31,480 nucleotides of DNA from a virus. The notes under the pieces are model-generated. The model saw only the letters and a program-made list of their open reading frames with translations, did not search any database and was not told the DNA's origin. The translations under genes were made by a program, and so were the position numbers. Location of the stretch: IMG/VR virus record IMGVR_UViG_3300009124_000060, positions 1 through 31,480 of that record, one strand, 5' to 3'. This document shows positions 1,627 through 31,480 of the stretch, one piece after another (the first letter of the stretch is position 1; each line of letters begins with the position of its first letter).

Positions 1627-1645
1627 TACTTCTCCTAGTGAAGCA

Positions 1646-1697
1646 GGAGGCCTTCGGGGCCTCCCCTTAGATGTACTTCCCTAAGTTACCCTATTGG
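1646..1697 (-). promoter_or_regulatory. Motif A, copy S1: CCAATAGGGTAACTTAGGGAAG (1697->1676), a 15-nt spacer, then the 7-bp hairpin GGAGGCC/GGCCTCC (1664->1646).
   Basis: The 18-nt core is identical to the cores at 10866-10883 and 24917-24934. It starts 1 nt after the stop codon of the upstream gene and ends 20 nt before the amidase ATG. Confidence 0.6.
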
Positions 1698-1698
1698 A

Positions 1699-7767: not shown

Positions 7768-7822
7768 AGTATCCTCCTGGTATAATAGGGTTAGGGCAAA
7801 GTTTTTAGTAAAAACCTTTCGT

Positions 7823-7849
7823 GTTCTCTACAGTATCGAGAATGTAAAA
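7823..7849 (-). promoter_or_regulatory. Motif C, copy 2: TTTTTACATTCTCGATACTGTAGAGAAC.
   Basis: Matches 15058-15085 at 22 of 28 positions without gaps. It lies just downstream of the terminator at 7846-7881 and upstream of the small terminase gene. Confidence 0.45.
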
Positions 7850-8409: not shown

Positions 8410-8482
8410 TGGAAGGGCAGGTGGGATTCGAACCCACGGCTCTCTGGTTCGCGGCCCAAGAGATGATCCATCCAGCTGCCCC
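8410..8482 (-). tRNA. Atypical tRNA gene with an encoded CCA. The anticodon is probably GCG (Arg), but the isotype is uncertain.
   Basis: The minus strand reads GGGGCAG CT GGAT GGATC ATCT C TTGGG CCGCGAA CCAGA GAGCC GTGGG TTCGAAT CCCAC CTGCCCT T CCA. The acceptor stem has 7 bp and the T arm is canonical (GTGGG-TTCGAAT-CCCAC). The D loop has only 5 nt, the anticodon stem has one mismatch, and position 33 is C rather than U. Confidence 0.6.
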
Positions 8483-8485
8483 AGA

Positions 8486-8737
8486 TCAGATTCGTAGAAA
8501 GAATTTATGATCTGGTGTGACAGGTATCTCTGATTGAAAGTCTGTCTCGTAGTAATAGATTAAGTTTCCGTTTGGTTGCGGATGAGCTTGTATAGCAGAT
8601 ACAGGAAGTAGTCTTAGTCTCTCTCCACAGATATCCTCTACATAGATTTCCATATTAGCCATAAGCATTTTGGCGGCGGCCAAAAAAGAAACTTCTTGTA
8701 GTTGTACAGTTTCTATCTTGAAATCATTCCCTTCCAT
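8486..8737 (-). CDS. Hypothetical protein.
   Basis: 83 aa with an ATG start. It is translationally coupled to the upstream small ORF. No motif was recognised. Confidence 0.5.
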   Translation of the reverse strand: MEGNDFKIETVQLQEVSFLAAAKMLMANMEIYVEDICGERLRLLPVSAIQAHPQPNGNLIYYYETDFQSEIPVTPDHKFFLRI

Positions 8738-8895: not shown

Positions 8896-10167
8896 TTACC
8901 ACTGTGCCTTGATGACCAGTGGTGAATTCCAATTCTTTCTTCTAAATTCGTTAGATATAAGTCTCAACCTTGCAGGTGAGATCTTCTTGTTGATAATCAA
9001 ACCATCAAACTGGTATGACATTACTTCGTATCCTGCGTCAGCAAGTAGTTCTGCATACTTAGAAATTTTATAAGTTTCCATTCTGCAAAGCATTCTTGAC
9101 AACACCTTGTTCAGTTCTTTGTCTGTCAGTGATCCTGCAGTTCTTTCTTCATAGCCACAAAGGTTCTTGAATGAATCCAAGTTGTACATATACTTGGTCA
9201 ACTTAGCCTTTGCTCCTCTGTATTCTTTCATAGTCTCTTCGCCATATACAAAGTCAGCGTTCTTGTTCCCGAACAAGATCGCAAGATGCAACAGCTTTTT
9301 ACTAGAGAACTGTTCGTATCCTTTCTTAGCTCTGTAAGCATTGATCTTCTCTAAGTCTTTATCGGATACCCAAGACAAGATAGCATCTCTAGAATCTTTT
9401 CCTGAAAAAGTAAGCAGCAATTCTTTCTGTTCTTTAGTCAAGCCAGCCTTGAACCAGTGCGACTTAACCAAGTATTCGAAGTCACAGTTGTAAGAAGCCT
9501 TGGCATCGATGTCTACATAGCCAGTGTTCTTTAGTAAAAAGTCTCTAAGTCTAGAAGAAGCACCTTGTAGAGAAGCATCCATAGCGAATGCTCTTTCACC
9601 TTGCTTTCTGTATTCTGTCCACAGACAAGCATCATCGGGAGAGATGTTCAACTTCATAGCTTTTAAATATTCTTTATCGTGATCATTCAAACCGAGAGCT
9701 TCAATTTGTACTGCATCAGTGAATAGATCTTGTCTAAGTGGGCAAGCAGTAGAAGCTATACCAGTCTTAGCATTCAGTCTTTCAACAGCTACCTTCTTAT
9801 CTACAAAGAAACCAACAGGCAATTTGCACAGCTCATTGAATACTGTATTGATTGCGGCAAGATTTCTTTTGAAAGTTTTGCAGTAAGCACCTTGGCTATA
9901 GCTGTCACTAACGATCTCACCGAATGGACCGTAGTCTCTGTCGAAGTTCTTCTTGTAGTTTCTATCAAGAGAGATAGCAAACTGAGAAGAGAAGTAGGTG
10001 TATTCCCAAACCTGAAGTGTTCTGTGTTGTTGCTGGAACTTTAGTCTGGTTACAATTCTTTTTAATTTCTTAAGCCACTGGATTTCTCTAGTGCTGTAGT
10101 CTTCTTTCTTAAGAGAAGGATCAATGGTTAGATCGGTTGGATTGTCTTTGTATTGTAGTATCGTCAT
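8896..10167 (-). CDS. Divergent protein resembling a family A (Pol I/T7-like) polymerase domain, with no exonuclease domain.
   Basis: The motifs appear in canonical order. ERAFAMDASLQGAS (aa ~191-204) compares with GRLSSTDPNLQNIP. YVDIDAKASY (aa ~217-226) is motif-A-like. KKLLHLAILFGNKNADFVYG (aa ~290-309) compares with motif B K...NFG..YG. SYQFDGLII (aa ~384-392) compares with motif C QVHDE. Spacing is close to that of the Klenow polymerase domain. At 423 aa there is room for thumb, palm and fingers only. Confidence 0.45.
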   Translation of the reverse strand: MTILQYKDNPTDLTIDPSLKKEDYSTREIQWLKKLKRIVTRLKFQQQHRTLQVWEYTYFSSQFAISLDRNYKKNFDRDYGPFGEIVSDSYSQGAYCKTFKRNLAAINTVFNELCKLPVGFFVDKKVAVERLNAKTGIASTACPLRQDLFTDAVQIEALGLNDHDKEYLKAMKLNISPDDACLWTEYRKQGERAFAMDASLQGASSRLRDFLLKNTGYVDIDAKASYNCDFEYLVKSHWFKAGLTKEQKELLLTFSGKDSRDAILSWVSDKDLEKINAYRAKKGYEQFSSKKLLHLAILFGNKNADFVYGEETMKEYRGAKAKLTKYMYNLDSFKNLCGYEERTAGSLTDKELNKVLSRMLCRMETYKISKYAELLADAGYEVMSYQFDGLIINKKISPARLRLISNEFRRKNWNSPLVIKAQW

Positions 10168-10277: not shown

Positions 10278-10730
10278 TTAGCAGAAAGCCTTTAATTTCT
10301 TAAGTTTTTTTTCTGCATCGGACAATTTTTCGTAGTGTCCGTGGTAAGTTCTCTTACCCAAATGTCTCTCAGTAATTCTATATCTAGCATAGCCATTGTT
10401 ATTTACTAAAGAGATCTTGTACCTTGGGCTGCCATTGTTAAGAAGGTTTTCGCTTCTGGTTACAATTCTAAGATTAGAAACATTATTGTTTGTTCTGTCT
10501 CTGTCTATGTGATCTACGTGCAAGCCATCGTGTTCCCCAAAGTAAGCTAAAGCAACAAGCTTGTGTACGTGCCTAGTATATGCTTTGTTGTCTTTCATAA
10601 CCTGAACATACAGGTAGTTAGTCTTCTTGTTAACAGATTGCTTTAGTTCTCTCTGCTTGCTTCTTTTGTTAGAAATTATTCTTCCATCGTCTGTTGCGTA
10701 GTATCCAGGGAATCCTGCTATCTCTTTCAT
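10278..10730 (-). CDS. HNH homing endonuclease (NUMOD4 plus HNH_3 type).
   Basis: The N-terminus IAGFPGYYATDDGRIISN is NUMOD4-like, and HVDHIDRDRTNNNVSNLRIVTRSEN is an HNH motif. Confidence 0.88.
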   Translation of the reverse strand: MKEIAGFPGYYATDDGRIISNKRSKQRELKQSVNKKTNYLYVQVMKDNKAYTRHVHKLVALAYFGEHDGLHVDHIDRDRTNNNVSNLRIVTRSENLLNNGSPRYKISLVNNNGYARYRITERHLGKRTYHGHYEKLSDAEKKLKKLKAFC

Positions 10731-11040: not shown

Positions 11041-11424
11041 ATGCAGATTAATCTTCAGGCTAAACTAGATTCGATTGTATTACGTAGTGTAACGAGAGAC
11101 TTCTTTCCTCACGCTGTAATCACTTCAAAGGAAGAATATATAACCATTATGGAAGTAGAAACAACGGCAGAGGACTTAGTATCCTACACAGAGCTTATGA
11201 ATATGATCTGCCCTCCCGACATTTATATAGCTGTCATTGGTGAGGATCCTGATGAGCCTGCTTTCATTAGCTACAGGTATGGTGACATAGAAGAGATGAC
11301 AGTAGAGCAATTTGAGGAAGACAGAGAAGTCTTCCGTTTAGTTATCAAACCGCACAGCTTACCTTCAGAAGACGATAGTGTAGATTCTACACCCGAAGAT
11401 GATTCAGACTGGGATTGGATCTAA
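11041..11424 (+). CDS. Strongly acidic small protein of unknown function.
   Basis: 127 aa with about 31 D/E against about 8 K/R residues. The tail is acidic (EDDSVDSTPEDDSDWDWI). SD GGGAGG. It is the first gene of the short plus-strand block. Confidence 0.6.
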   Translation: MQINLQAKLDSIVLRSVTRDFFPHAVITSKEEYITIMEVETTAEDLVSYTELMNMICPPDIYIAVIGEDPDEPAFISYRYGDIEEMTVEQFEEDREVFRLVIKPHSLPSEDDSVDSTPEDDSDWDWI

Positions 11425-11453
11425 CCCAGCTTCCACACTTTTTAGTAAAAAGT

Positions 11454-11483
11454 TTTACCAGTCTATGAATACTTGCGTATAGT
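11454..11483 (+). promoter_or_regulatory. Sigma70-type promoter candidate TTTACC-18-TATAGT.
   Basis: TTTACC lies at 11454-11459 and TATAGT at 11478-11483. An AT-only palindrome, ACTTTTTAGTAAAAAGT (11437-11453), precedes it. Confidence 0.3.
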
Positions 11484-12354: not shown

Positions 12355-12885
12355 ATGGGAAATTTTCACAGTAGTAACGACATAGGCTCTAAGTCTGAGA
12401 ATCAATTCAAACAAGAATATCTTCTTCCTTGGATGGAAGCAGGACACATTGACAAAGTATGGCACGTACCACACACTGAATTCAGAAAGCGTGGTTACAA
12501 GTATGACTGGGACTTTGTAGTTAAGATTGATGTTCTTGGTGCTTGTGAGCAAAGAAATATAGAAATGAAATCTTTAGCTGGTGGCTATCCTACTGGCGTT
12601 GTAGAGAAGTGGAAGTATGATGATAGAACTGGTAGAGCTGGTTGGTATCTGGCAACAGAGAAAGGTTTGTTGGATTACGTTATTGTTCACGACAGATCAG
12701 TAAATAAGTTTTACTTGTTCGATGCTCAACTTCTTAAGCAGCACGTAGACAATACTTCTCAGTGGGAAGAAAGACAATGCTACGATAAGAACACAGATGC
12801 TATGGGTTGGGTTGTTAAGTTCAGATGGACTGACAAGGATGCAGGATACATCTGCACATTAGATCCAGAAGTTTATTCTTTATAA
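12355..12885 (+). CDS. Putative PD-(D/E)xK-fold nuclease.
   Basis: YDWDFVVKIDVLGACEQRNIEMKSL gives a D...(E)xK arrangement, preceded by an N-terminal helix carrying a conserved Glu (GSKSENQFKQEYL). 176 aa. Confidence 0.4.
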   Translation: MGNFHSSNDIGSKSENQFKQEYLLPWMEAGHIDKVWHVPHTEFRKRGYKYDWDFVVKIDVLGACEQRNIEMKSLAGGYPTGVVEKWKYDDRTGRAGWYLATEKGLLDYVIVHDRSVNKFYLFDAQLLKQHVDNTSQWEERQCYDKNTDAMGWVVKFRWTDKDAGYICTLDPEVYSL

Positions 12886-12914: not shown

Positions 12915-12947
12915 AAAGCCATCTCTTTCGGGATGGCTTTTTTGTTT
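12915..12947 (+). terminator. Rho-independent terminator in the convergent gap. It may work in both directions.
   Basis: The stem is AAAGCCATCTC/GGGATGGCTTT around a TTTC loop, followed by TTTTTGTTT. An A-rich tract upstream could serve the minus strand. Confidence 0.7.
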
Positions 12948-15091: not shown

Positions 15092-18000
15092 TTATTGATC
15101 TCCTTTCTCAGCATCTTCTCTAGCCTTTTCTTCGATGGCTGCATCTCTTGTTCTTTCCAAAGACTTTAATCTTCTGATTTCTGCTTGTATAGCTTGGCGT
15201 CTAGAATACAAATTAAAGAGATCTTGCTTAGCTGCAGGTGTTACCCCTACAGGCTTCCCTACTACCCTCTCAGCTATGTTAAACGGTTCATAGGCACCAG
15301 TACCTGCCATAATCCTTGTAAGCTCTACAGGGACCCTTGACAGCCCTACAAAGTTAACAGCACCCATAAAGCCATTGAAGTTCTCAGCTTGCTTAGCATC
15401 CATAGGAAAAATATAATTCTTTCCGTTTATCTCAATACCTTTATCAGATGTAGTGATTGTAGGTGTTATTGTACCACCAGTAATAACTTGTATTGTCTGA
15501 GCGATATCGAATGGGTCTTGTGTGCCGTAGTAAGTCTGCACTAACTTAGTCCATTCTACAGGAACTTTATTGCTAGCTTTAAAATCTGATTCTAAATCTA
15601 AACCACCACGAACTACAGGAGATACCATTCTTCTTAGTGTCTCTTGTGTTTCATCAACAGGAGAAGCTATTAGCCCAGCTACCGACATCATCGCATCTAG
15701 CGTAGGTATAGCAGGTGTAGTCATATAGAAGTTTCTATCTTGTCCGTTGTGTACTGACAAGATGGTTCTGTTTAGTGTATAGTCTGGCATATAAACTTTC
15801 GGATCGAACTGCTTGTCATCGTTCATTGTGGTCATAAACCTTTCAACACCATTGTCCATCTTCAAGATGTTTGCAATTCTTTTTGCTTTTGCAGGCTCGC
15901 TTAAGTTCTTCACAAACGTAGTCATATTCTGTCTGTAGAAAGAATAAAAAACAAATGCTGTAGCAGCAAAGGCTTTCTCTGTTGGGTTCATATTGTTGTA
16001 GTCAAACATAGACTTTCTAGCCAACACAGTTGCTTCTTCTATGGATGCACCGTTCTTTAGGGCATCTTGCATTACCGCAGCCCTGAACACCATATCTTCA
16101 GCAATCATCAGTTCACCACCAACATCACCAATTCTAGCAAGAGGTCTTTGTACAAGTGCACCAGCCACTGCACCTTTTGGTCCAGCTACAGCTCCTCCGA
16201 CAGCAGCGGCGGTAGTGTTTCTAGACCAGTCTGTCATCCAGTTCATAGCTTCTTTGGACAGCCCTGTTCTTCTAGTATTGTTGTCTTCGATATATTTTAT
16301 TAAAGATCCGTCATTGATTGTACTAGTAATCATAGAGAATTCAGATCTAGCACCACCAGCATACACTGCTTTGTTCAGATCTCCGTAGGTATAGAGCCTA
16401 CCATCTGGTGTTTCTACTGCAATCTCATAGTATCTAGGAGCTGTTGGACTGTAAGCCTGCAGAGCCTTAACACCGTGCTTTACACCATTGGGACCTACAA
16501 TCTTACCTGTGGTCATATAAGTGATTGTAGAGGCTGTAGTAATGTTGTTCATATGGAACTGAGGGGCGTATGTAAGAACGCCCTTGTAGAAGATAGACAT
16601 TACCCCGTTCATAAAGTTAGATAAGCCTTTTAAAGTTTTATCTTTTAGGGACAAATCCTTTAGTAACTGGTCAAGCTGTCTAGATATCGGAGCAATTCTA
16701 CCTGATGCTAGTGCTTTGTTAAGTTCGTTGTATACAGTTTCACCCATATACAGTTTACCCATACGCTCATCTTTGAACAGTTGGTTAATGAAATCTGCAG
16801 CCTTGTCTGCGTCTGTATCAAATTTAGCCCACAAGTTATTATTTCTAATGATTTGATCACCTGCATCTGCTACGTATCTTTGGTATCTAGCAGCAAATGA
16901 CAGCTCTCTTTCTACGTATCCATACAGACCTTGGTTAGCTTGTTGCTGTTTAAGTTGCTCTACAGCTTGTTCAAATTCATCCCAGTTCTTAGCGTTAACC
17001 AAAGCAGCATTGTAGTTCTGTACACCGCCAGGTCCCATATTACCCAGTGTTCTTTGGATAGCACCGAGGTCTGCTCTTTCTGGTCTGTTGAAAGAATCTA
17101 AGATATAAGATTTTAAATCTGCTTCTAAGTAAGTCGATGGATCCATATTGGCGTTCTCTGCCATCTCTTCAAGCATAAACTGAGAAGCCATATCGCTTCT
17201 CATAGTGTCAATGAGATCATCAGTACCTGCTATAATTACATCTTCGTTTACAGCTCTTACAAGATGCTTGCTTACAATTCTATCACCCTCTGCCCAGTAG
17301 TACATACCCAGACTAACTTCATTCTGCATTGTATCTTTTAAAGAAGCAAACTTCTTTTCTATCATTCTATCTGTTACACCAGGTGCAAGTGACTTCTCAT
17401 CACCAAGAATCTTCACGTATTCTGTTATAAGTTCACTGAAGTTATCCCAGTATTTAGCTGGGTTCTCGTAAGTCTTAGCTACAAAAATCTCTACTACATC
17501 ATCCAACTGCTCTTTACCGAACTTAGATAAAAAAGTATTTCTTTGTGCTAGCTGGTTTAAGCCTACTACCCTGTCAGTTACAGATGTAGATTCCTTAACG
17601 TGATAGAACAATCTACCTAATGCCCAGTCTGCAGTGTCGTACAATCTGTTTAGTTGTATTGATGTCTGTACATCATCAGCTCTAATCTTATAAGCATCAG
17701 AAAGATTAGGAGATTCTATCACCCCAGTAGCGGCTTCTTCCGCTTCAGCAATTTTTCTTTTTGTTTGCTGTCTGAACAAATCAGATTCTTCTTTGTACTG
17801 AGCAGCCTTCTCTTCTCTGCTAGCTGTCTTCTCTGCTCTCAAGTCTTGTACAGCTTCATCGTAAGACTTTCTTACTTCACCTTTGTTGAAGTCTCTGATT
17901 GTAACCAGTTCTTTCTTTTCTACTTCAAGTGCATCTGCAAGTTCTGACTTTTTAGTAGAGAGAACTTCATCTGCTTGTTCTCTGGCTATCCTTATATTTT

Positions 18001-21000
18001 CTTTTCCACGAAGTTTTACTTGTTTTAAATCTGCTTTAGTGGCTTTTTTAAAATTAGATAATTCTTCTCTGGCATCACGCACTATATTACTAAAGCGATT
18101 GTTAACTTCGTTTAGGGCAACAGTTCTCTTTTGCTTAATGCTTCCTTTATACTTCTGCATTTCAGTTTTAAGTGCTGCAGCATCATCTGCAAAGTCTGCT
18201 CTGATCTGTGCAGTTTGTGCTTTGTAGCCCTCTCTAACGCTCGCTGCAGCGTCTTTCTTGGCTTGCCTTACTGCTTGCCTTACTGTGTCGAAAGAATCCC
18301 CTAGAGCTTGTCTGAAGGCTGCTTTCTGGTTTCTATTAGACCAGCCTAGTTGTGCACGAAAAGACCTAACATCAAAGTCTGCTTGACTAAGACCAGCTCT
18401 TCTTGCCATCTCTGTATCAAGCATATCATCAATTAAAGTTTGTAATTCTTCTCTACGTCCAGCATCATCAAGCCCATCCATTCTGGCAACCATATTGTCT
18501 AAGGCTTCTTCTCTAATCAAACCTATGGTTTCTTCGTATTCAGTTTCTACTTGTCTAACTGTATCATCAAACATCTCTGCAGCATCTTTCTGAGCTTGTC
18601 TGTATGAGCGTCTGTAGGCTTTCATAGCCTCAGACATATCATCAGCCTCGTCAAGGAATTCAATGTCGTCAGCATTCCTTATGCGGGCAAGTTCGTCAGT
18701 AACATCTATTTGAGCTTCTTCAAGTTCTAATTTCTTATTAGCCTTAAGTTCTTTATCTCTGGCTACGTAGGTAGCTTTGGTTTCATCATATGCTTGCTTA
18801 GCTTCTGCTTCAATCTTTTCTACTTTTGTTTTTCTAACTTCTTCTGCTTCAGCAATAGCTAACTTGTTGTTGTTCTCTAAGTCTTTCAGATCTTTTTCAG
18901 ATTGCTTTTGAACCTTCTCTATCTCTGCATCTCTAGTTTTCTTTGCATTATCTACAGCCTTTGCTCTTTCGGCTTCCAGTTTCCTAAGTGCAGCATTGTA
19001 ATCTGCTTGTGCTGCAGCCTTAGCTTCCGCTGTAGTAGCACTAAGAAGTTTTAATTTTTCATCTCTAACTTCTTGCTGTGCTGCTCTTGCTGACTTGAAT
19101 TCATCTTCAAGTGCTTTCTTAGATTCAGAGAACTGTTTTTGTGCATCAGCTCTAAGAGACCTTTCTTCTGCTCTAATGGCTTCCTTAGTCTCAGGAAGTT
19201 TTCTTTCCAATTCAACTTGCTCAAGTCTTCTTTGTCTAACTTCAGCTCTTTTAGATTCAGCCCAGTTTTGGTATTCAGTTGCGGATACTTGCTTAGTTCC
19301 TCCCTGTCCATCGGGTATGTGGAGCTGTGCAATCTCTGGTGATCTAGGCCCAACAATAGCAGCACCAAGGGCTTCTTCTGACGTAGGAATAACTTTAGGA
19401 TCTAAGCCATACAGCTCTCTTAATTCTTCTGCTTGTTTGCCTTTGCTTCTCAATCCGTCTATGGTATTTCTAAGCTGGATATCCATAGCTGAGGCTTCTT
19501 GTTTTACTTCCTCGAATAATCTACGCTGCTCAAAGGTAGCAGCGTCTGGTGTAGCTGTTTCAGGTACACTATTCTTTCTAGCTCTCTCTGCCATTTTTGC
19601 TATGTAATCTTTTCCTGATCCAAAGAATTCTACAAAGAAACCATCATCCCTTACACCTGGAGCATCAAGAAACTTTCTTTGCATCTTTGGTGGTAACTTA
19701 GAGATATCTGCTGTGGTGTATACCCCTCTTTGCAGATTCATAGCTGCATCGTCTATGGTCATACCCTTTAGTCTATTGAAATCTTCGAAGTACAACTTGC
19801 CATCTTTCAAGTTATCAAGAATGTTTCTGAATTCAATGTTACCCAATTTGTTCTGTGCTTTGGCATCAAAGAGCAGCATATTCAAAGCATCGGTATCTTC
19901 AGGTTCTAAATAGAAAAACTTTTGCGGCTTTGGTGCTTCAGCATACCCACCCAGTTCTGCCATCTGTGACTTTGATGCTGATATTCTCTCGGCATCAATA
20001 CCGATCTTTCTTGCAGGTACTACATCGCCTGCAAACACCCTACGTATGGGAGCTGTCCACTTACCAAAAACACCTTGTGTATCTATGGTTTGCTTTCTTC
20101 CGTGATAAATTTGAGAAAGATATTGTGATAGTGGAGATTTGTTTGCTTCTGCGTAAAGCTCAGCTTCTCTTGCTGGATGGGTAAAGGTCTTTCTGGTTAC
20201 TGCTTTTACACCATCTAAACCTCTTAGGCCAGGTGCTGCTTCAAAAACCGAAGACCTTGCGTAGTGATAGTCTACAAGTTTTTGTACATCTGCTAGTTCA
20301 TCACCACCCATTCTAGCAATTCTTGTTCCTCTGGATGTGGCAATCCTATCAAGCAATTCTTTATTTACCCTAGGGTTGTCTAGTAATGCTTGCTCAGCAA
20401 AGTCAAAGCCTTCGTCCGCTACTTCGTCAAGGTATCTTTGGGTAGCATCGTGTTCTAATTTGGATTGCTTTGCATTTCCAAACATTTTTTCGTCAACTGC
20501 TTTAGATGCTTCAGTTACGTCATCACCAGTTCTAGCAATGTGTTCATCTAGTAACTTAGCGTACTTAGTATCAGGGTTAGGAATCTGACCTTTAGCCGCA
20601 GTTCTAGAAGCCTCTAGTTCTCTGGCAGTCTTAGCACCTACAAGAGATCTGATATCTCCGTAATCATCAGTAGCTTTAATTACTTTCTTTGCTAGTGGCT
20701 TACCTACAATTGGCATATGTGTAATAAAGTTTACATCTTTTGCAAAAGCATTTAGTCCAGCACCACCTGCTGCTTTTAAAACTTCACCTACAGCCTTTGC
20801 GTCTGTAGAAGTATTTAGAACTTTTTGTGCTTTGTACATTTGACTACCGCCCTTGAGGGCTTTTGATCCAGCAATCAAAACACCAAAGTCTGGTGACAGA
20901 ATATCTCCAGCTAAACCACCACCAACAACTACAGCGGCTTGCCAACCTTCTAATCCAAGAGCGTTAGATACGTCTTGGAATTCACCTGTAAGCCCTTTGT

Positions 21001-22570
21001 TAAGTGCTATCGAAGCCATATAAGAAGAATCTGCGTAGTCAGGTGTTGCTTCTGCTCTACCCTTTCTTCTTGCCATACCCAGTGTAGATGGTTCACCGCC
21101 AGCAAATTCTGGAATAAAAGAAGATAATCCTGTTGTAAAGTAATCAGCTTCTTCGATCAAACCAGCTTTTGCAGCAACTTCAAAGCCTACACCCATAGCG
21201 GTTTCTACAGCAGGTTCTAGAACAGGCTCAATCACGTTTTCTTGTACAGCTACAGCCAATACGTTTAGCGGAGCCATACCCATACGAAAAACATAATTCT
21301 TAGAAGTCTCGGCTTGCTTACCCATATAGTCCATGTCAGTGAAGAAACCTTCAACAACATACTTGTCGGGATTAGCTTTGATATCTGCTTTTAAAGCAGG
21401 GTCAAGAAACCAAGCATTAGGATCACCAAATTCATTAATAGCTCTAACAGAAGTTAAAGCACCACCCATAGTGGGGCTGATACTATTTGATGTACCTCTA
21501 CCAGCTGACATAGATACACCACCAGCGTTTCTAATAGCTTGGTCTGCTTGTGGCGATATAAGCGTTCTTGTAGTCTTTGGGTTTGTGTTTGTAAGATAAT
21601 CAAATACTTCTCTTGGCACAGTACCAGTTGCAGTACCGCCAATAGGGAAGCTAACCAAATCTACTTCTTCTTCACCAATCTTCTCTCTGTTCTCAGAAAA
21701 AAACTTATAATAAGGCTTCTCAATGGTCTTCTTAACGTAAGCCATCTGTGCTGGTGTGTAGTCCTTAACCTGTCCTTTGTTACCTGTTACCTGCAATTCA
21801 AATGCACCAACAGTATCTTCAGAGAATCTATCTTGTAGTTCGGTTTTTGCAGGTTCAAATGTAGGAGCAGAATCTATTGCTGCTATCTCATCAAGTGCTT
21901 TTCTAAGTGCATCATCAGTACCTTTTGATAGGGGCAACAAACGAAAGTAAGCTTCTTCAATAGCGTCTACTTGTGTCTGTGCATTATCAAAGTCTATATT
22001 AGGATTAGCAGTTATGACAGCATTGTACAATCCGTCTCTGTCCAATCTTGTATCTGACTTTTTACTAGAGAACTGCTGAGGTCTAAGTGGAGATACAGCA
22101 CCAGTGAGAGAAGGCAGCTGACCTGTAGCTGTTTCAATAGGAGGAGCGGCAGGAATATCTACACCTAAAAATTCTGCAGGTGCAGTCTTTTCTGCAAAGT
22201 CACCAAAGGTAGCAGTAGTAGGTGGCTTTACATAAGTCTCTCTAATCTCTTTGTCGAACTTATTGTAGATGCTATCGTAGCTAATAGAAGATGCAGGTAT
22301 GCCAGAATCTATCATGGCTTGCATCTCTTGTTGCGTCTTTAAATCAGCAAGCTGACCAATAAGCGTTTGCTTTTCTGTTTCGTTAGGAATTAAACCTGAC
22401 AGCAAAGGATCTGGAGCAGAAGGAGAATAATAATAATTACCCAAGATAGAAGACATTGTAGGAATACCATACTGGTTTTCTTGTATCTCTCTATCTGCAT
22501 ATCCTCCAAGGATCTGGGCTTCTAAGGCTTTCTTTTTTCTTTCTAATTCCAGTTCTTCTGGCGTTGGCAT
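15092..22570 (-). CDS. Giant 2492-aa virion protein, a candidate internal/ejection protein in the position of T7 gp16.
   Basis: A single uninterrupted ORF covering 24% of the genome, with SD GGGGTGA. It contains a central E/K/A/R coiled-coil block of about 500 aa (roughly nt 17,730-19,270) and Gly/Ala-rich hydrophobic segments (about nt 20,860-20,950 and 16,130-16,230). It follows two other internal-protein-like genes. Confidence 0.55.
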   Translation of the reverse strand: MPTPEELELERKKKALEAQILGGYADREIQENQYGIPTMSSILGNYYYSPSAPDPLLSGLIPNETEKQTLIGQLADLKTQQEMQAMIDSGIPASSISYDSIYNKFDKEIRETYVKPPTTATFGDFAEKTAPAEFLGVDIPAAPPIETATGQLPSLTGAVSPLRPQQFSSKKSDTRLDRDGLYNAVITANPNIDFDNAQTQVDAIEEAYFRLLPLSKGTDDALRKALDEIAAIDSAPTFEPAKTELQDRFSEDTVGAFELQVTGNKGQVKDYTPAQMAYVKKTIEKPYYKFFSENREKIGEEEVDLVSFPIGGTATGTVPREVFDYLTNTNPKTTRTLISPQADQAIRNAGGVSMSAGRGTSNSISPTMGGALTSVRAINEFGDPNAWFLDPALKADIKANPDKYVVEGFFTDMDYMGKQAETSKNYVFRMGMAPLNVLAVAVQENVIEPVLEPAVETAMGVGFEVAAKAGLIEEADYFTTGLSSFIPEFAGGEPSTLGMARRKGRAEATPDYADSSYMASIALNKGLTGEFQDVSNALGLEGWQAAVVVGGGLAGDILSPDFGVLIAGSKALKGGSQMYKAQKVLNTSTDAKAVGEVLKAAGGAGLNAFAKDVNFITHMPIVGKPLAKKVIKATDDYGDIRSLVGAKTARELEASRTAAKGQIPNPDTKYAKLLDEHIARTGDDVTEASKAVDEKMFGNAKQSKLEHDATQRYLDEVADEGFDFAEQALLDNPRVNKELLDRIATSRGTRIARMGGDELADVQKLVDYHYARSSVFEAAPGLRGLDGVKAVTRKTFTHPAREAELYAEANKSPLSQYLSQIYHGRKQTIDTQGVFGKWTAPIRRVFAGDVVPARKIGIDAERISASKSQMAELGGYAEAPKPQKFFYLEPEDTDALNMLLFDAKAQNKLGNIEFRNILDNLKDGKLYFEDFNRLKGMTIDDAAMNLQRGVYTTADISKLPPKMQRKFLDAPGVRDDGFFVEFFGSGKDYIAKMAERARKNSVPETATPDAATFEQRRLFEEVKQEASAMDIQLRNTIDGLRSKGKQAEELRELYGLDPKVIPTSEEALGAAIVGPRSPEIAQLHIPDGQGGTKQVSATEYQNWAESKRAEVRQRRLEQVELERKLPETKEAIRAEERSLRADAQKQFSESKKALEDEFKSARAAQQEVRDEKLKLLSATTAEAKAAAQADYNAALRKLEAERAKAVDNAKKTRDAEIEKVQKQSEKDLKDLENNNKLAIAEAEEVRKTKVEKIEAEAKQAYDETKATYVARDKELKANKKLELEEAQIDVTDELARIRNADDIEFLDEADDMSEAMKAYRRSYRQAQKDAAEMFDDTVRQVETEYEETIGLIREEALDNMVARMDGLDDAGRREELQTLIDDMLDTEMARRAGLSQADFDVRSFRAQLGWSNRNQKAAFRQALGDSFDTVRQAVRQAKKDAAASVREGYKAQTAQIRADFADDAAALKTEMQKYKGSIKQKRTVALNEVNNRFSNIVRDAREELSNFKKATKADLKQVKLRGKENIRIAREQADEVLSTKKSELADALEVEKKELVTIRDFNKGEVRKSYDEAVQDLRAEKTASREEKAAQYKEESDLFRQQTKRKIAEAEEAATGVIESPNLSDAYKIRADDVQTSIQLNRLYDTADWALGRLFYHVKESTSVTDRVVGLNQLAQRNTFLSKFGKEQLDDVVEIFVAKTYENPAKYWDNFSELITEYVKILGDEKSLAPGVTDRMIEKKFASLKDTMQNEVSLGMYYWAEGDRIVSKHLVRAVNEDVIIAGTDDLIDTMRSDMASQFMLEEMAENANMDPSTYLEADLKSYILDSFNRPERADLGAIQRTLGNMGPGGVQNYNAALVNAKNWDEFEQAVEQLKQQQANQGLYGYVERELSFAARYQRYVADAGDQIIRNNNLWAKFDTDADKAADFINQLFKDERMGKLYMGETVYNELNKALASGRIAPISRQLDQLLKDLSLKDKTLKGLSNFMNGVMSIFYKGVLTYAPQFHMNNITTASTITYMTTGKIVGPNGVKHGVKALQAYSPTAPRYYEIAVETPDGRLYTYGDLNKAVYAGGARSEFSMITSTINDGSLIKYIEDNNTRRTGLSKEAMNWMTDWSRNTTAAAVGGAVAGPKGAVAGALVQRPLARIGDVGGELMIAEDMVFRAAVMQDALKNGASIEEATVLARKSMFDYNNMNPTEKAFAATAFVFYSFYRQNMTTFVKNLSEPAKAKRIANILKMDNGVERFMTTMNDDKQFDPKVYMPDYTLNRTILSVHNGQDRNFYMTTPAIPTLDAMMSVAGLIASPVDETQETLRRMVSPVVRGGLDLESDFKASNKVPVEWTKLVQTYYGTQDPFDIAQTIQVITGGTITPTITTSDKGIEINGKNYIFPMDAKQAENFNGFMGAVNFVGLSRVPVELTRIMAGTGAYEPFNIAERVVGKPVGVTPAAKQDLFNLYSRRQAIQAEIRRLKSLERTRDAAIEEKAREDAEKGDQ

Positions 22571-22579
22571 AATTCACCC

Positions 22580-24220
22580 CTATTCGTTCATAAAATGCAA
22601 AGCAACTAATAGCTGTTGTGCTTCCTTCATCTTCTCAGGCTTATCCTTATAGAACACTTCCAGCTCTCTATACGCATTTGTAAAAAGCTGGTCTCTCTTA
22701 TCTTTGGAGGTATCTTTGGGTGGATTGTATAGTGATAACACCATCTTGGTTGTTTCAGTTTTTTCTTCGGCATTTACCTTTGCACTTAAATCTTCTTCGG
22801 CTATTGCCATACCTGAAGAGATAGTATCGATAGCTGCGGAATCTCTTTTCTGCTGTCTAGTCTTATCCATAGTCACAGGCTGACCTTGAGGGGTACTTGG
22901 GGGTGCAGCTAGTTCATCAATAGACAAGCCCATAGCTTCAAATTCTTGTCTTCTTTGAGCATACGGATCAACAGGTTCTGGAGGTGGAGGAGGTACAGTT
23001 CTTCCCAACTGCTGTGCTTGTGCAAACGGAAGTGGTTGCCCTACGTCCATAGAGCCTGCAGGTTGTTGTAGCAAGTCCATTGGAGCTGGGCCAGCAGTAG
23101 GTTCCATAATAGCAGGAGAATCTTCTAGAGGTGTAGGTTCTAGTGCAGGAGAAAAACTTCCTAAAGGTTCTGTTCTCATAGAGACATCACCTCTCATTTG
23201 TTCTCTGAGGTCATATTCTTCAGGCTTCATACCAGTAGCAAAGAATTCTTGTGCCTGACCTTGGCTAAGTCTTGGAGGCATAGAACCCTTTGGTTCTTCC
23301 AAGAAAGACATTAAGTATTCTCTTTGTCCAGCCTGTGATCCCATATCAAAGTCAGTACGCGTAGGTGGGGGAGCAGGTGCACCACGCAGTCTAGCCCCTT
23401 CCATTCTAGTTCTACCAGTGAGATCCATAGTAGGAGCAGGACCGAAGTCTGGTGCTGTTGGTCTTTGGGTTTCAGCAACTTCTAAAGTAGAAATCTTTGT
23501 AGTGGTTTCACCTAGCAAATCTTCTAATCTTTTTATTTCTGCATCTCTAGCAGCCTTGGCTTCTTTCGACAACTTCTTTTGTCTACCAGAACCAGAAGAA
23601 GATCTTGTGGTTTCTATTGTTCTACCAGCAAAAGGTGTGTATCCTTCACCTTCAAGTTTCTCAATACCTGTGCCAAGTTTAGTAGAGATTTCTCCCTGTG
23701 CTGTTTTCTGTCCTTCCAATTGCTGTCTTCTAGCAGGGGGAAGTGTAGGATCTTTTAATTTATCATCAATAGCTTGGATAAGTCTGTCAGATTCACCTTT
23801 ATCTTTGGTAGCTCTGTCCAGTTCTCTTTGCTTTGGATCTAACTTTGTAGTTGTTGAAGAACCTCCACCGCCACCACCAACAGTAGTAGTACCTGCTTCG
23901 ATCTTCATCTTAGTAAGATCTCTATTTGTTTTTTCTCTTAATCTTGTCAGGTCTTGAATCTGATCAAGTCTTATTTTTTCTTGTTGTTGTGCAAGTCTAA
24001 GTTCATCTTCGTATGTAGCTAACCCTTGTCTTACCTTAAGTTCGTAAGCCTTCATATCGGACTGTAACTGCAATTTGGCTGCTTCTTGAGCCATCTGCAG
24101 TTGTTTGTACTTTGCTTGAGAAACAGTTTGTGCAAACTGCTGTCCCAAAGTCATAGGGTCTACGTTCCCTTTAATAACATACACCGTACCTGGTGCACCT
24201 TTAACGCCTTGTATAGCCAT
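22580..24220 (-). CDS. Internal-virion-like protein with low-complexity Gly and Pro tracts (gp15 position).
   Basis: 546 aa with an N-terminal coiled coil, a GGGGGGSSTTT tract and a Pro-rich middle section (PPPPPEP). Confidence 0.45.
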   Translation of the reverse strand: MAIQGVKGAPGTVYVIKGNVDPMTLGQQFAQTVSQAKYKQLQMAQEAAKLQLQSDMKAYELKVRQGLATYEDELRLAQQQEKIRLDQIQDLTRLREKTNRDLTKMKIEAGTTTVGGGGGGSSTTTKLDPKQRELDRATKDKGESDRLIQAIDDKLKDPTLPPARRQQLEGQKTAQGEISTKLGTGIEKLEGEGYTPFAGRTIETTRSSSGSGRQKKLSKEAKAARDAEIKRLEDLLGETTTKISTLEVAETQRPTAPDFGPAPTMDLTGRTRMEGARLRGAPAPPPTRTDFDMGSQAGQREYLMSFLEEPKGSMPPRLSQGQAQEFFATGMKPEEYDLREQMRGDVSMRTEPLGSFSPALEPTPLEDSPAIMEPTAGPAPMDLLQQPAGSMDVGQPLPFAQAQQLGRTVPPPPPEPVDPYAQRRQEFEAMGLSIDELAAPPSTPQGQPVTMDKTRQQKRDSAAIDTISSGMAIAEEDLSAKVNAEEKTETTKMVLSLYNPPKDTSKDKRDQLFTNAYRELEVFYKDKPEKMKEAQQLLVALHFMNE

Positions 24221-24226
24221 AGTTCT

Positions 24227-24874
24227 CTACCTCACTAGCATAAAATAATTTAACATTTCAGTTTGGCCTGATTGCATCATCTTCTGCTGAATCTTCTGAG
24301 CATCATCCAAAGGAATGTTGTATTGCTGAGATATCATCTGTGCATAATTTGGAGAACCAAACCCACCGTAAAGACCTTGAGATGGAGCCATAGATGCTAC
24401 AGCGGCTTGTGAACCTGCAACAAAAGGAGAAGCTAGAGCTTCTCTTCTAAGCATTTGCTGTTCTGATAAGGCAGCTTCCATATCTCTTAGCATTTGTTCT
24501 TCTTGTTGCTTTTTCAAAAGATTTTGCTCGGCTATTCTTCTATCTGCTTCTGCAGCCATACGATCTGCAGATTCTTGTTGAAGGGTATCTTGAAGTAGTT
24601 GTTGACCACCTTGTACCATACCACCACCAGCCATAATCTGTTTACGCTGTTGTTCTGCTAAAGCTTGCGTCTGAGAAGTCTTAGCTTGCATTTGACCTTC
24701 CATTACACGCCTTTCTTCAGGTGTAAGTCCAAGCAATCCAAGTTCTTCTCTGCGTTGCAGTTTCTTATAATCTTTTTTTAATTCTTTCTCTGCCAAGGTA
24801 GGAACCACTTGAGGTATAGCACCAATAGCTGAACCACCTGCTGCAATTAATGCCGACAATGTTATAGGATCCAT
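24227..24874 (-). CDS. Gln/Met-rich internal-virion-like protein with an N-terminal hydrophobic segment (gp14 position).
   Basis: 215 aa. MDPITLSALIAAGGSAIGAIPQVV is followed by Q/E/M-rich helices. Confidence 0.4.
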   Translation of the reverse strand: MDPITLSALIAAGGSAIGAIPQVVPTLAEKELKKDYKKLQRREELGLLGLTPEERRVMEGQMQAKTSQTQALAEQQRKQIMAGGGMVQGGQQLLQDTLQQESADRMAAEADRRIAEQNLLKKQQEEQMLRDMEAALSEQQMLRREALASPFVAGSQAAVASMAPSQGLYGGFGSPNYAQMISQQYNIPLDDAQKIQQKMMQSGQTEMLNYFMLVR

Positions 24875-24916
24875 AATTCATCTCCTGTCATAAATACTGA
24901 TTTGTAAAGGGTTATA

Positions 24917-24970
24917 CCAATAGGGTAACTTAGGGAAGAGCTACTAGAGAGGGACCTCCCCAAGAGGTCC
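24917..24970 (+). promoter_or_regulatory. Motif A, copy S3, inverted relative to S1 and S2: CCAATAGGGTAACTTAGGGAAG (24917-24938), a 17-nt spacer from the 18-nt core, then the hairpin GGACCTC/GAGGTCC (24952-24970).
   Basis: The exact 18-nt core reads on the plus strand here. Both flanking genes are on the minus strand, and no plus-strand ORF lies downstream. Confidence 0.6.
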
Positions 24971-24973
24971 TGA

Positions 24974-25696
24974 CTATACATAGAAGACCTCTGCTGTCAT
25001 AGACTTAACAGAACAATAAGCTACTTCATTATGAGGATCTACTGAAGCTGTAAAGTTATAAGTTCCTGCATCTAAGGTTACAGATACTGTTGTCATAATA
25101 GATCTATAAGATGCCATCTGATCTCCAGCCCAAGGATCTAAAGTATCTGACGTAGAACCTGCTGGATCAAATGCGTAGTTGTCTGTAACATTACCTAGAA
25201 AGAATCTCTTGCTATCTACCCCTCTGGTATAAGTAATAATAATTTCATTTTGCCAAAGACCATTACCAGGTCCTTTTGAGGAAGTGGGAGCTTCATTTCC
25301 TTGTACATAATAGTGAAGATACATTGTAAGTAGACACTTTGCTCCGTCTTGCTTTACGTGTACCCTGCATCCTGAATTTGTGATGTCTTGCCAATCTTTT
25401 ACCAGCGGATCTGTCTGAGAATTATTTTTAGTTGTAGAAGTTTGGTATGACCTGTTGGTGTAATTGGCTAGCTCTGCAGAACCTACTACTTCTCCAGTTT
25501 CAAAAGAATAAGCACCCTCTAGTGGAGAGAACCTACCCAAAGCTATATCTGACTTATCTAAGGACAAACCATCAATATCTCCAGCTACAATCTCTTGGTT
25601 AAGGAAATCTTTTAAAGATTCTTCATTGTTTTGCAGATGCTGCGTTCTTAATTCGCTAGTATCTGTATATTGATTTGGTTGTGTATATGTAGACAT
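24974..25696 (-). CDS. Beta-rich tail-associated protein, third of a tandem trio.
   Basis: 240 aa, S/T/N/Y-rich. Its start overlaps the upstream stop. Confidence 0.4.
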   Translation of the reverse strand: MSTYTQPNQYTDTSELRTQHLQNNEESLKDFLNQEIVAGDIDGLSLDKSDIALGRFSPLEGAYSFETGEVVGSAELANYTNRSYQTSTTKNNSQTDPLVKDWQDITNSGCRVHVKQDGAKCLLTMYLHYYVQGNEAPTSSKGPGNGLWQNEIIITYTRGVDSKRFFLGNVTDNYAFDPAGSTSDTLDPWAGDQMASYRSIMTTVSVTLDAGTYNFTASVDPHNEVAYCSVKSMTAEVFYV

Positions 25697-29326: not shown

Positions 29327-30820
29327 TTACCCTCTATAGTGTAGATTCGAAATATCAAAGCGAGCAGAGCGTTGTCCCATAGAAAACTGTCCTCTCTGTA
29401 CTTGGAAGTCAATCTTATCTACATATCTTTTCTCTAAACCTTTCACTTCGGTTTCGTATTTCTTTTCATAAATCCTAGCCATATCAATCTGACCTAGCTT
29501 TAGATAGATATCTTCTAGAGCCTTGTAGACAATAAGCTGATGGAATTCAACAGGCATATCAGGTACATCTGTTCCTAGAAGAAGATCTTGTGGTTTCTTC
29601 ATATAACGCATAATGCCCTGTCTTACGTAGTTGTGGAACTGTGTAATAATAGCAAAGTCTGTTTTCCTAGGTAGCTCAATGTCATATCCATTTACACGAG
29701 GATAAAAACGAATTTGTTGGTGCAACCCATCTCTTTCAATATATCTTTCATTTCCAGAATCCAACTGGGTTATGTCATCGATTGTAACCTCAAAGTCTTC
29801 ATCAGATACAAGCAAAGGCTCTAAGTAAGTGTTTGTACCCCTAGAACCACCTTTCGTTACTTGCACCCAACAGTGTAGACCTTTGTGTTCTCCAGTCTTT
29901 CTGTCTAGATTTTTATTAAAGAATATAACCTTACGATAACCTTCCCACTGTGTAGGTGTCTTGTCGTTTGCATAGAAACCGTCAGAGAATATCTCTTCAT
30001 CATTCCAAGACATAAATTTTAAAATTACAGATCCGTTGTTACCGTGTGTGTGTACCTGTGAAGGTTCTGATAAAGGCCCAATCTTACCGTCCTTAACAAA
30101 CGCATAACAGAATTCCCAGTAGGTATTGTTTGGTAGCGTACCAGTCTCACCGTCTCTAATCTCTAATCTTTCTGCAGGTTTAATCTGTACCGTAGGACTG
30201 TTGATGTAAGCCTCTGCGTAAGGCTGATCGTAGTCTACACGCATATTAAGGCGTTCTTCCATTGAAGGAAGAATAGCCGAAGATTTACCGTATGGATTAG
30301 ACATACCAGATACTGTTGTGTATGGGTAATCTCTGTGTCCTACATAAAGCAATTCAGAGCAGTCTTGTGGTAAGTCATAGTATCTTTTTTTAATTTTCCA
30401 AGCAGTAGAATCTGTGAGGTCTTCGCCTCTGTATTCTTCTGTTAGCTGTATGTTTCCGCTGACATCGATATAGTTGATGATGTATTCTTGGTTGTTCAGC
30501 TCAATTATAGCTCCTTCCCATACATCTCTTTGAGAGACAAGGCGGTCTACAAAAGTAAAGAATACAACTTTTCTTGATCCAGATGCGATGGTGATGGTTT
30601 TCTCTGCACCAAGGGGCATACCTTCGTTATCTCTTGCAGGTGTAATATCTGGATAAAAATCAAAGATAGCTAGCTTTGTTGTGAAGTTCCAACGCTTTTT
30701 AGTATAGATAGAATAGTAAGCGTCGTTGATAAGATCATCTAGCTGTTCATTGTACTGTTGCAGCTCTGGGCTGTAGTCAGTAATGTTTTTAATTTTCTGG
30801 CGTAATGCAGTTAGGTTCAT
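29327..30820 (-). CDS. Candidate head-tail adaptor / tail tubular protein A analogue.
   Basis: 497 aa. It is the first gene after the capsid/decoration terminator. The call rests on position only. Confidence 0.3.
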   Translation of the reverse strand: MNLTALRQKIKNITDYSPELQQYNEQLDDLINDAYYSIYTKKRWNFTTKLAIFDFYPDITPARDNEGMPLGAEKTITIASGSRKVVFFTFVDRLVSQRDVWEGAIIELNNQEYIINYIDVSGNIQLTEEYRGEDLTDSTAWKIKKRYYDLPQDCSELLYVGHRDYPYTTVSGMSNPYGKSSAILPSMEERLNMRVDYDQPYAEAYINSPTVQIKPAERLEIRDGETGTLPNNTYWEFCYAFVKDGKIGPLSEPSQVHTHGNNGSVILKFMSWNDEEIFSDGFYANDKTPTQWEGYRKVIFFNKNLDRKTGEHKGLHCWVQVTKGGSRGTNTYLEPLLVSDEDFEVTIDDITQLDSGNERYIERDGLHQQIRFYPRVNGYDIELPRKTDFAIITQFHNYVRQGIMRYMKKPQDLLLGTDVPDMPVEFHQLIVYKALEDIYLKLGQIDMARIYEKKYETEVKGLEKRYVDKIDFQVQRGQFSMGQRSARFDISNLHYRG

Positions 30821-31375: not shown

Positions 31376-31480
31376 TTAGTAAGTGTCTGCATTGAATAGA
31401 ACGCCACAAGAACCCAAGTGGTCAGCAATCAACTGCATCTTAACGTACAACTGAGCAGCTCTAGCAGTAGAACCAGATAC
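31376..31480 (-). CDS. 3' end of the major capsid gene. 31404-31480 duplicates 1-77. The unique tail at 31376-31403 encodes ...GVLFNADTY followed by a stop.
   Basis: The frame carries over from position 1: ...TCT TGT GG|C GTT CTA TTC AAT GCA GAC ACT TAC TAA, with the TAA at 31376-31378. Confidence 0.75.
   Translation of the reverse strand, partial: VSGSTARAAQLYVKMQLIADHLGSCGVLFNADTY
31404..31480. repeat. Terminal direct repeat, copy 2, identical to 1-77.
   Basis: Exact 77-nt identity with the window start. Confidence 0.95.

Follow-up and report, generated by a model that had tools for sequence, protein, structure and literature searches.

A word-and-hairpin cassette inserted in either direction in a small phage genome, and a candidate TV-Pol-like reader

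The window analysed here is the whole 31,480-nucleotide (nt) stretch of IMG/VR virus record IMGVR_UViG_3300009124_000060, in which one 18-mer, CCAATAGGGTAACTTAGG, is found at three sites (S1, S2 and S3), each time followed by a short hairpin. Bases 1-77 recur at 31404-31480, so the assembly is circular or terminally redundant and the genome is 31,403 bp, and the minus strand carries almost all genes of this small, uncultivated phage. S1 and S2 run in the direction of the minus-strand genes behind them. S3 lies on the plus strand, between minus-strand genes whose facing ends are at 24874 and 24974, as an earlier note on this DNA had reported. The question raised by this locus is why one copy of the cassette points against all of its neighbours. 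S1 and S3 were found to be compact additions to gene junctions that are tight in related phages, and across these phages the element stands in both directions as a rule. The reading that is favoured here, tentatively and with low confidence, is that the cassettes may be strand-specific initiation sites for a minimal TV-Pol-like polymerase encoded beside S2, with S3 serving the opposite strand.

Anatomy, conservation and direction of the cassettes

The exact 18-mer was counted three times in the genome where 0.03 copies are expected; no shuffle reached three, allowing up to three mismatches added no further copy, and the 14-mer core, searched with up to three mismatches, gave nothing above chance beyond the same sites. 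In every cassette (Table 1) the word is followed by GGGAAG or GGAGAG, within a purine-rich spacer of 15 nt in S1 and S2 and 17 nt in S3, and then by a hairpin with a perfect, GC-rich 7-bp stem and a 5-nt loop, CCGAA or CCCAA. The stem sequences differ from copy to copy. In single-strand fold predictions the hairpin is the dominant structure of every copy, whichever strand is folded. The S3 hairpin ends 3 nt from the TAG stop of the gene for a 240-amino-acid (aa) protein. The sites are spaced 8-14 kb apart, and S1 and S3 converge over about 8.2 kb of the circular map, across the major capsid gene, the gene for an SU10-type adaptor and tail-region genes, in agreement with the convergence over the capsid and tail block that had been described before. 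No plus-strand open reading frame (ORF) of at least 60 aa follows S3 before position 27420, which bears out the gap of about 2.4 kb already noticed; the sole small plus-strand candidate after S3 encodes MRIY and then stops, and was rejected.

A search of Rfam with the whole window at E values up to 1 gave nothing at S1, S2 or S3. Elsewhere, a weak match to L20_leader was seen at 24418-24514 (+), antisense within the 215-aa gene, with 27.4 bits against a gathering threshold of 58.7 and an E value of 0.16, and is most likely due to chance. No iterons were found beside S2, no AT-rich unwinding region was identified in the window, and the edges of the three cassettes carry neither the terminal inverted repeats nor the target-site duplications expected of a miniature inverted-repeat transposable element. 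The 10-mer ATTTGTAAAG occurs at 24900-24909 (+), 7 nt upstream of S3, and again at 11019-11010 (-) in the intergenic region on the S2 side. The second copy of this 10-mer is followed by a degenerate word-like sequence, TTGGGTTAACCTTAC, with no hairpin, and this may be a decayed fourth copy.

A search of the metagenome collection with the 18-mer returned only locus L084, which is the same contig as L083 (relatives are referred to by such locus numbers where they need to be told apart). L083 comes from a diverged relative whose amidase has 80% amino-acid identity, and it carries a cassette at the S1 position and in the same direction, with the word, the hairpin, the ribosome-binding site and the amidase ATG in the order seen at S1. 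All 20 bases around the word are identical to those of the window, in an alignment that is 87% identical overall, with about one difference per 8 positions in the flanking coding DNA. The L083 stem is ACGGTCC/GGACCGT with the loop CCCCGA. Among the four copies with the 18-mer, the stem arms differ at 3-6 of the 7 positions, all 28 stem cells are Watson-Crick, and six of the seven pairs have changed on both sides; the pairs were counted by script (MAFFT misaligned the short hairpins). The identical word and the covarying stem indicate that the word is read as sequence and the stem as structure, in single-stranded DNA or RNA. The loops (CCGAA, CCGAA, CCCAA and CCCCGA) are C-rich and then A-rich, and the loop is probably contacted too.

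For the history of the insertion sites, 66 related loci were retrieved from IMG/VR with the capsid protein. The junction that houses S3, after the homologue of the 240-aa gene, is 6-19 nt long in all 21 relatives that cover it and 99 nt long in the window. A typical relative reads ...GTG TAG GTGAACT ATG GAC CC... here and looks translationally coupled, whereas the window holds S3 plus a new ribosome-binding site. The N-terminus of the 215-aa protein beyond S3, MDPIT, corresponds to that of the next gene in the relatives, MDPLT. The junction between the scaffold-like gene and the amidase gene is 6-9 nt or overlapping in about 45 relatives and 71-72 nt in the window; in L083, which also has a cassette there, the gap is about 76 nt as read from the sequence. 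The insertions at S1 and S3 measure about 65-90 nt, around a self-contained cassette of about 55 nt. Because the same junctions are tight or overlapping in relatives, S1 and S3 are taken as compact added cassettes, and by this sequence comparison the S3 gap is a lineage-specific insertion. This history shifts the question from one reversed copy to why the cassette sits in either direction.

Related phages have their own versions of the word, with the core GTAACTnnGG, often as ACTATAGG; the closer versions share TAG(G)GTAACTnn(A)GG, and ACTATA|GG occurs among the words of the relatives. L001, whose polymerase homologue is 34% identical to the one in the window, has ATAGTTTAGTAACTATGGTA four times, two per strand, arranged as two convergent pairs. 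The members of the first pair, A (+) and B (-), are separated by 206 nt and lie between RusA and the polymerase promoter. Copy C (+), at 11312-11331, is a perfect 20-nt word inside an intact amidase gene (11047-11457), and is followed by its own 7-bp hairpin, TATGGAG-ACATA-CTCCATA. It converges with copy D (-), 218 nt downstream, which is located between the genes for amidase and capsid and is followed by ACCTCC-CCAAA-GGAGGT. In L085 the L001 word, with a single change, follows RusA directly. Two antisense copies of AAAAAGTAGTAACTATAGG are present in L012, one between terminase and portal and one between scaffold and capsid, and L240 matches L012 exactly at that junction. Two more distant phages with the polymerase have other words: L281 a tandem CTTAAGATGTCACTATAGCTAGAAG opposed to its scaffold-like and capsid-like genes, and L283 three copies of GTGACACGACGTTGAC(CTATAGG), one plus and two minus, of which two form an inverted pair with a distance of about 90 nt. 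When IMG/VR was scanned with words of the L001 and L012 types, about 190 loci were returned, and only L240 was more than a chance match.

Antisense copies are S3, both copies of L012, copies B and D of L001, the copies of L281 and two of the three in L283. When all copies were tallied against their local genes, roughly 6 were sense and 8 antisense, so S3 is no oddity and mixed direction is the rule for the element. Cassette positions are non-syntenic between lineages. A copy adjoins the polymerase gene in several of them (S2 in the window, A and B in L001, and the copy in L085). Among the capsid-family loci, 12 of which reach 10 kb upstream of the capsid gene, no polymerase homologue was detected, and these loci show no 18-mer and no CCNAA hairpin after a motif-like word.

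A minimal polymerase and the possible role of the cassettes

The polymerase gene in the operon that follows S2 encodes a 423-aa protein, and a set of 1.8 billion representative proteins contains only about 14 that are detectably related to it. A model from a 3-sequence alignment was unusable, with a predicted local distance difference test (pLDDT) score of 49.6; the AlphaFold model from a 13-sequence alignment, with pLDDT 86.9, was used instead. Its best matches among solved structures are the Taq, Klenow-type, Bst and apicoplast (apPOL) family-A polymerases, at E values around 1e-4, and its best viral matches, in BFVD, are the replication proteins of the Zamilon and Qinghai Lake virophages, labelled 'helicase/primase/polymerase', at 1e-8 to 1e-5. 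Residues D221, K291, G300 and D388 are invariant or nearly so and fit motifs A, B and C. In the distant homologues P0013 and P0014, the polymerase domain stands in front of D5_N or DUF5906/VapE helicase modules. Sequence and profile searches with the polymerase against the PDB gave nothing, and nor did pattern scans for it in IMG/VR and GTDB genomes. As modelled, the protein is of the TV-Pol type, having a minimal family-A palm, fingers and thumb core, kinship with virophage polymerases and an association with D5-like helicases. TV-Pols are predicted primase-polymerases and relatives of T7-like RNA polymerases, placed in that prediction near the common ancestor of the family-A DNA polymerases and the T7-type RNA polymerases (PMC2579912; Iyer, Abhiman and Aravind 2008). 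In the literature, no description of a cis-acting recognition site for any TV-Pol was found.

A small ORF of 83 aa follows the polymerase gene directly. ORFs of 86, 83 and 62 aa occupy the same position in L001, L005 and L085, and similarity to the 83-aa protein was detected only in L005. By analogy, the 83-aa protein is possibly a partner subunit like the MP of CCPol-MP. There, a family-A polymerase and its small companion have been proven to act as a primase, with G as the usual first nucleotide and a preference for a sequence that resembles the presumed origin (PMC7581432, PMC10061031).

Initiation signals of the ssi type come closest to the combination seen here: a word conserved exactly, stems that covary, copies on the two strands and, in relatives, as inverted pairs, one copy next to the polymerase gene, and an encoded polymerase of a family predicted to prime. 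From this likeness we infer the binding protein, start point, direction of synthesis and replication role of the cassettes as follows. The 423-aa enzyme, possibly with the adjoining small protein, would recognise the 18-mer much as a T7-type polymerase recognises its promoter. From a start at the GG after ...CTTA, the enzyme would synthesise a short, purine-rich primer over the 15-17-nt spacer. The GC hairpin would form either in the product or in the DNA strand that is displaced, and would limit this primer or pass it on for extension by the host replisome. Each site would prime one strand only, so the genome would need sites on both strands. S1 and S2 would serve one strand and S3 the other, and direction relative to neighbouring genes would be irrelevant; S3 would be neither a mistake nor a gene promoter turned antisense. 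A more doubtful, stronger form of this proposal is that the enzyme might be a promoter-specific primase starting at GG, intermediate between family-A DNA polymerases and T7-type RNA polymerases, with the two-strand cassettes, S3 included, as its origins. If that were true, a phage with neither a helicase nor a DnaG-type primase would start replication on both strands.

Several points weigh against the cassettes being sites of this enzyme. A TV-Pol has neither the N-terminal domain nor the specificity loop that are behind promoter recognition by T7 RNA polymerase, so a different surface, or a partner, would have to recognise the 18-mer. In the window the sites stand dispersed, 8-14 kb from each other, whereas those of plasmid RSF1010 are paired in a single origin. 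The reader could instead be one of two other phage proteins, the one with sigma-70 region 4 or the HNH nuclease. S1 occupies exactly the place at which a late promoter would benefit the amidase and capsid genes. The co-occurrence of word and polymerase is biased, most motif-bearing loci having been fetched through the polymerase itself; the contigs of L083 and L012 end short of the replication module, and the words of L281 and L283 may be non-homologous to that of the window.

The place of S1 would suit a reading in which the cassette would be a phage-specific transcription promoter with a 5' stabilising stem-loop, the mRNA starting at GGGAAG under a phage polymerase or a redirected host polymerase, with S1 for the late genes and S2 for the early ones. 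S3 would then make an antisense RNA that lowers tail-gene expression or separates the tail block from the block of internal proteins. The word is shaped like the promoters of T7, SP6 and K11 and has purine-rich starts; S1 and L083 run from word through hairpin and ribosome-binding site into the amidase ATG, S2 precedes the early operon, and TV-Pols are related to T7-like RNA polymerases (PMC2579912). However, no ORF searched gave an RNA_pol family match that would indicate a T7-type RNA polymerase, and the early operon has its own sigma-70 promoter past S2, so the 18-mer is not needed as its promoter. About half of all copies in the group are directed against late genes that are essential, among them the two of L012 and, in L001 and L281, those that stand before the capsid gene. 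Copy C of L001 lies inside coding sequence. The plus strand has no terminator after S3, and a processive enzyme would therefore make a long antisense RNA. With direction uncorrelated with genes, a copy in coding sequence, a host-type promoter at hand and no dedicated RNA polymerase, a conventional mRNA promoter is unlikely under either polarity of the cassette.

Insertion between genes that in dozens of relatives overlap or stand 6-19 nt apart, non-syntenic positions and a seemingly random orientation would also be expected of a mobile or copy-and-paste intergenic cassette like the PeSLs of T4-type phages, which are documented mobile regulatory cassettes (PMC2839356, PMC4122927). Such a cassette would spread by recombination, its direction would be accidental, and any function (a weak promoter on one strand, for which the -10-like boxes described below would speak, mRNA-stabilising hairpins or recombination hot spots) would be secondary. 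This, too, is judged improbable: the edges have neither terminal inverted repeats nor target duplications, no transposase or recombinase gene was found in the genome (only RusA and HNH), and the copy number is low, at 3 per genome. The perfect conservation of the word across diverged genomes and the covariation of the stems argue for selection for function and not drift, L001 keeps word and hairpin within an undisrupted coding sequence, and the sigma-70 promoter and the U-tract of PeSLs are missing from word and hairpin, respectively. Still less probable is a double-stranded binding or cutting site for another phage protein, whose orientation would mark the strand contacted or nicked. Site-specific single-strand nicks do occur in phage genomes. 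The candidates are the 130-aa helix-turn-helix protein with sigma-70 region 4, which could be a regulator or small-terminase-like, and the HNH endonuclease, which could make nicks of the T5-like or tf-like kind; both are encoded in the early operon next to S2, the HNH_3 gene of L283 adjoins its inverted pair, and homologues of the sigma-4 protein are present in L001, L005 and L087. Yet tblastn found no HNH homologue in the word-bearing L001 and L085, and sigma-4 homologues are present in L052-L054, where no 18-mer or CCNAA hairpin was found. A purely double-stranded site would leave the covarying hairpin and its conserved loop unexplained, and a pac site is normally single.

Three explanations of S3 had been offered before. 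Transcription from a promoter has lost ground, with no T7-type RNA polymerase, a separate sigma-70 promoter and mixed orientation, while a primer or origin function, or one at the level of DNA, gained from the TV-Pol-like polymerase. The remaining one, a polarity with the hairpin before the word, is possible; exactly one of the three copies is antisense under either polarity, as had been pointed out. On the opposite strand, a -10-like box (TATAGT, TATACC or TATAAT) immediately precedes the hairpin in S3, S2, L083, copy D of L001 and L012, and the one at S3 partly coincides with the Val and stop codons of the 240-aa gene. The sequence ATGACA-16-TATAGT at 25000-24973 (-), a 10/12 sigma-70-like match among the three best in the second half of the genome, ends at the S3 hairpin and may be coincidental.

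Other identities were tried and rejected. The hairpins are not intrinsic terminators: they lack a T run, the sequence behind them being TGC, TGG or TGA when read on one strand and CTCTC or CCTT when read on the opposite one, and a terminator scan that found clear terminators at 7882-7852 and 13439-13412 called none of the three. In the 18-mer, GGTAACTT resembles the extracytoplasmic function (ECF) -35 element GGAACTT, but there is no -10 at workable spacing, and there is no sigma-70 hexamer pair. An invertible segment or site-specific recombination was rejected for want of a recombinase gene, and a pac or cos site on the grounds of three dispersed copies and a circular assembly. A resemblance to the I-SceI site, TAGGGATAAC, was judged coincidental.

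Through its candidate reader the element is linked to a polymerase family that has hardly been studied, and these phages provide a concrete candidate for a TV-Pol site, with an exact word, a covarying hairpin, copies on both strands and the look of a T7 promoter. If initiation by the TV-Pol-like enzyme at the cassettes holds, it would show in what way the recognition of promoters may have arisen ahead of complete transcription in the lineage of this enzyme, the start of replication in small phages that lack helicase or primase genes would be explained, and a compact orthogonal pair of polymerase and site would be available for engineering. If it fails, clear small structured elements are still seen inserted, in either direction, into tight, translationally coupled junctions of virion genes.

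Genome context and other repeated words

Coordinates are provided in Table 1. Read along the minus strand, the early operon consists of the sigma-70-type promoter, the HNH_3/NUMOD4 endonuclease, the 423-aa protein, the 83-aa ORF, tRNA-Arg, the 130-aa sigma-70 region 4 protein and a terminator. The labels that had been given to these genes from the letters alone (an amidase after S1, an HNH protein after S2 and then a polymerase-like one) all hold, the last as a polymerase-fold protein. Equivalents of the early promoter, TTGACA/TGnTATAAT, are present in L001, L085 and L086. RusA directly precedes the polymerase in the same three phages, and the HNH gene of the window looks like the insertion of a free-standing homing endonuclease. 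In L085 a tRNA-like sequence with a CCA end lies between its word and the polymerase promoter.

Table 1. Positions of the cassettes and other features in the window
Feature	Position	Strand	Remarks
S1, exact 18-mer CCAATAGGGTAACTTAGG	1697->1680	minus	Co-directional with amidase and capsid genes downstream
S1 hairpin GGAGGCC-CCGAA-GGCCTCC	1664->1646	minus	
Scaffold-to-amidase gap, 72 nt	1627-1698		S1 cassette plus ribosome-binding site
S2, exact 18-mer CCAATAGGGTAACTTAGG	10883->10866	minus	Divergent intergenic region upstream of early operon
S2 hairpin GACCGCC-CCGAA-GGCGGTC	10850->10832	minus	
S3, exact 18-mer CCAATAGGGTAACTTAGG	24917->24934	plus	Opposed to flanking minus-strand genes
S3 spacer GAAGAGCTACTAGAGAG	24935-24951	plus	Purine-rich, 17 nt
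S3 hairpin GGACCTC-CCCAA-GAGGTCC	24952-24970	plus	7 bp, 5-nt loop
Intergenic gap housing S3, 99 nt	24875-24973		Mostly filled by S3
240-aa virion-module gene	24974-25696	minus	Upstream of S3 in sense direction; homologues in 25 loci
215-aa gene	24227-24874	minus	Downstream of S3 in sense direction
Major capsid gene	1019 wrapping window ends to 31376	minus	
423-aa polymerase gene	8896-10167	minus	Minimal family-A (TV-Pol-like); candidate reader of the 18-mer
83-aa small ORF	8486-8737	minus	Directly after polymerase gene
Sigma-70-type promoter TTTACT-17-TATAAT	10783-10755	minus	Downstream of S2
HNH_3/NUMOD4 endonuclease gene	10278-10730	minus	Between early promoter and polymerase gene
tRNA-Arg, anticodon GCG	8410-8482	minus	Within early operon; from tRNA scan; sole tRNA, unrelated to S1-S3
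Strong intrinsic terminator	7882-7852	minus	Closes early operon, after sigma-4-like gene
Clear intrinsic terminator	13439-13412	minus	After 291-aa fibre-like gene
Bidirectional intrinsic terminator	12915-12940	both	After plus-strand gene 12355-12885
2492-aa ORF	15092-22570	minus	Long Glu/Lys/Ala-rich coiled-coil middle
CTTTTTACTAGAGAAC, exact copies	9295-9310, 22058-22073	plus	Both encode QFSSKK in unrelated proteins
CTTTTTACTAGAGAAC, further matches	3084, 6221(-), 6786, 9526(-), 12898(-), 17948, 27353(-), 27537, 27783		

The virion genes, in the same minus-strand reading, begin with the large terminase, an SU10-like portal and the scaffold-like gene, followed by S1, the amidase and the major capsid gene. 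After the capsid come the SU10-type adaptor, a 744-aa protein, three proteins of about 220-240 aa and S3, and past S3 the genes for the 215-aa, 546-aa and 2492-aa proteins. Neither Pfam, PHROG nor the PDB sequences gave a signal for the 2492-aa protein, and nothing therefore speaks for an N4-like virion RNA polymerase; the location of its gene makes an internal or ejection protein probable. A megablast search of GenBank phages with 25 kb gave no match, and no close cultured phage was found: tblastn with the capsid protein gave only matches of about 25%, to Mx8-like phages, and tblastn with the polymerase gave none.

Another word, CTTTTTACTAGAGAAC, is over-represented as well: 11 matches with three or fewer mismatches were counted where 0.81 are expected, on both strands and mostly inside coding sequences. 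Related words stand at about 7800-7840 (-), and similar ones were seen in L001 (one of them directly before the amidase ribosome-binding site) and in L054. This word may be the target of the sigma-4-like protein. An identical 22-mer, AGAAGAAGATCTTGTGGTTTCT, is present at 23594-23615 and 29577-29598 (+), inside two minus-strand genes, those for the 546-aa protein and an adaptor-like 497-aa protein.

Comparison with known systems

The cassettes are like PeSLs of T4-type phages in having a short promoter-like word with a stem-loop, in lying at gene junctions and in being tied to insertions. PeSLs differ in being sigma-70 early promoters with terminators, co-oriented and numerous, whereas the window has three copies in both orientations, with a word that is not of the sigma-70 kind and no U-tract.

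Promoters of the T7 group are words of about 18-23 bp that are repeated nearly exactly through the genome, end in ...CT(A)TA, have GG(G)A-rich starts and often come with a stem-loop. Relatives within the group carry shifted promoter words. The promoters phi-OL, phi-OR and phi-1.1A/B of T7 serve replication and not mRNA synthesis, and in T7 and in mitochondria such promoters also serve priming (PMC2579912). The words of the phages studied here (…ACTATA|GG and …CTTA|GGGAAG) resemble these promoters. The cognate polymerase of the T7 group has about 800-900 aa, whereas only a 423-aa core enzyme is present here; T7 promoters are all co-directional with the genes, whereas about half of the copies in this phage group are opposed, and the register of the conserved bases differs.

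CCPol-MP, from SCCmec, is likewise a truncated family-A polymerase beside a small protein, here SSB-like, on a mobile element; its start-site preference is loose and not for an 18-mer (PMC7581432, PMC10061031). It primes de novo, usually with G opposite template C (PMC7581432, PMC10061031). With the TV-Pol family the 423-aa protein shares the minimal family-A core, the virophage matches and distant homologues fused to D5-like helicases. It differs from that family in standing alone with no helicase and in belonging to a very small clade (14 matches among 1.8 billion representatives).

The sites ssiA and ssiB of the IncQ plasmid RSF1010 are 40-nt inverted repeats on complementary strands, each with a word and a hairpin and each priming a single strand, which are read by the plasmid's own primase in a replication that is leading-strand only (PMC8567376). 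There is no sequence similarity between the ssi sites and the phage cassettes, and priming by the latter is putative. The RepB' primase belongs to the archaeo-eukaryotic primase family, whereas the candidate here is of family A, and ssiA and ssiB lie together in one oriV beside iterons, whereas the copies in the window are 8-14 kb apart and close pairs are seen only in L001 and L283. Like the RSF1010 sites, the cassettes combine a specific word with a hairpin and have copies on both strands, and the convergent pairs of L001 and L283 resemble the arrangement of ssiA and ssiB.

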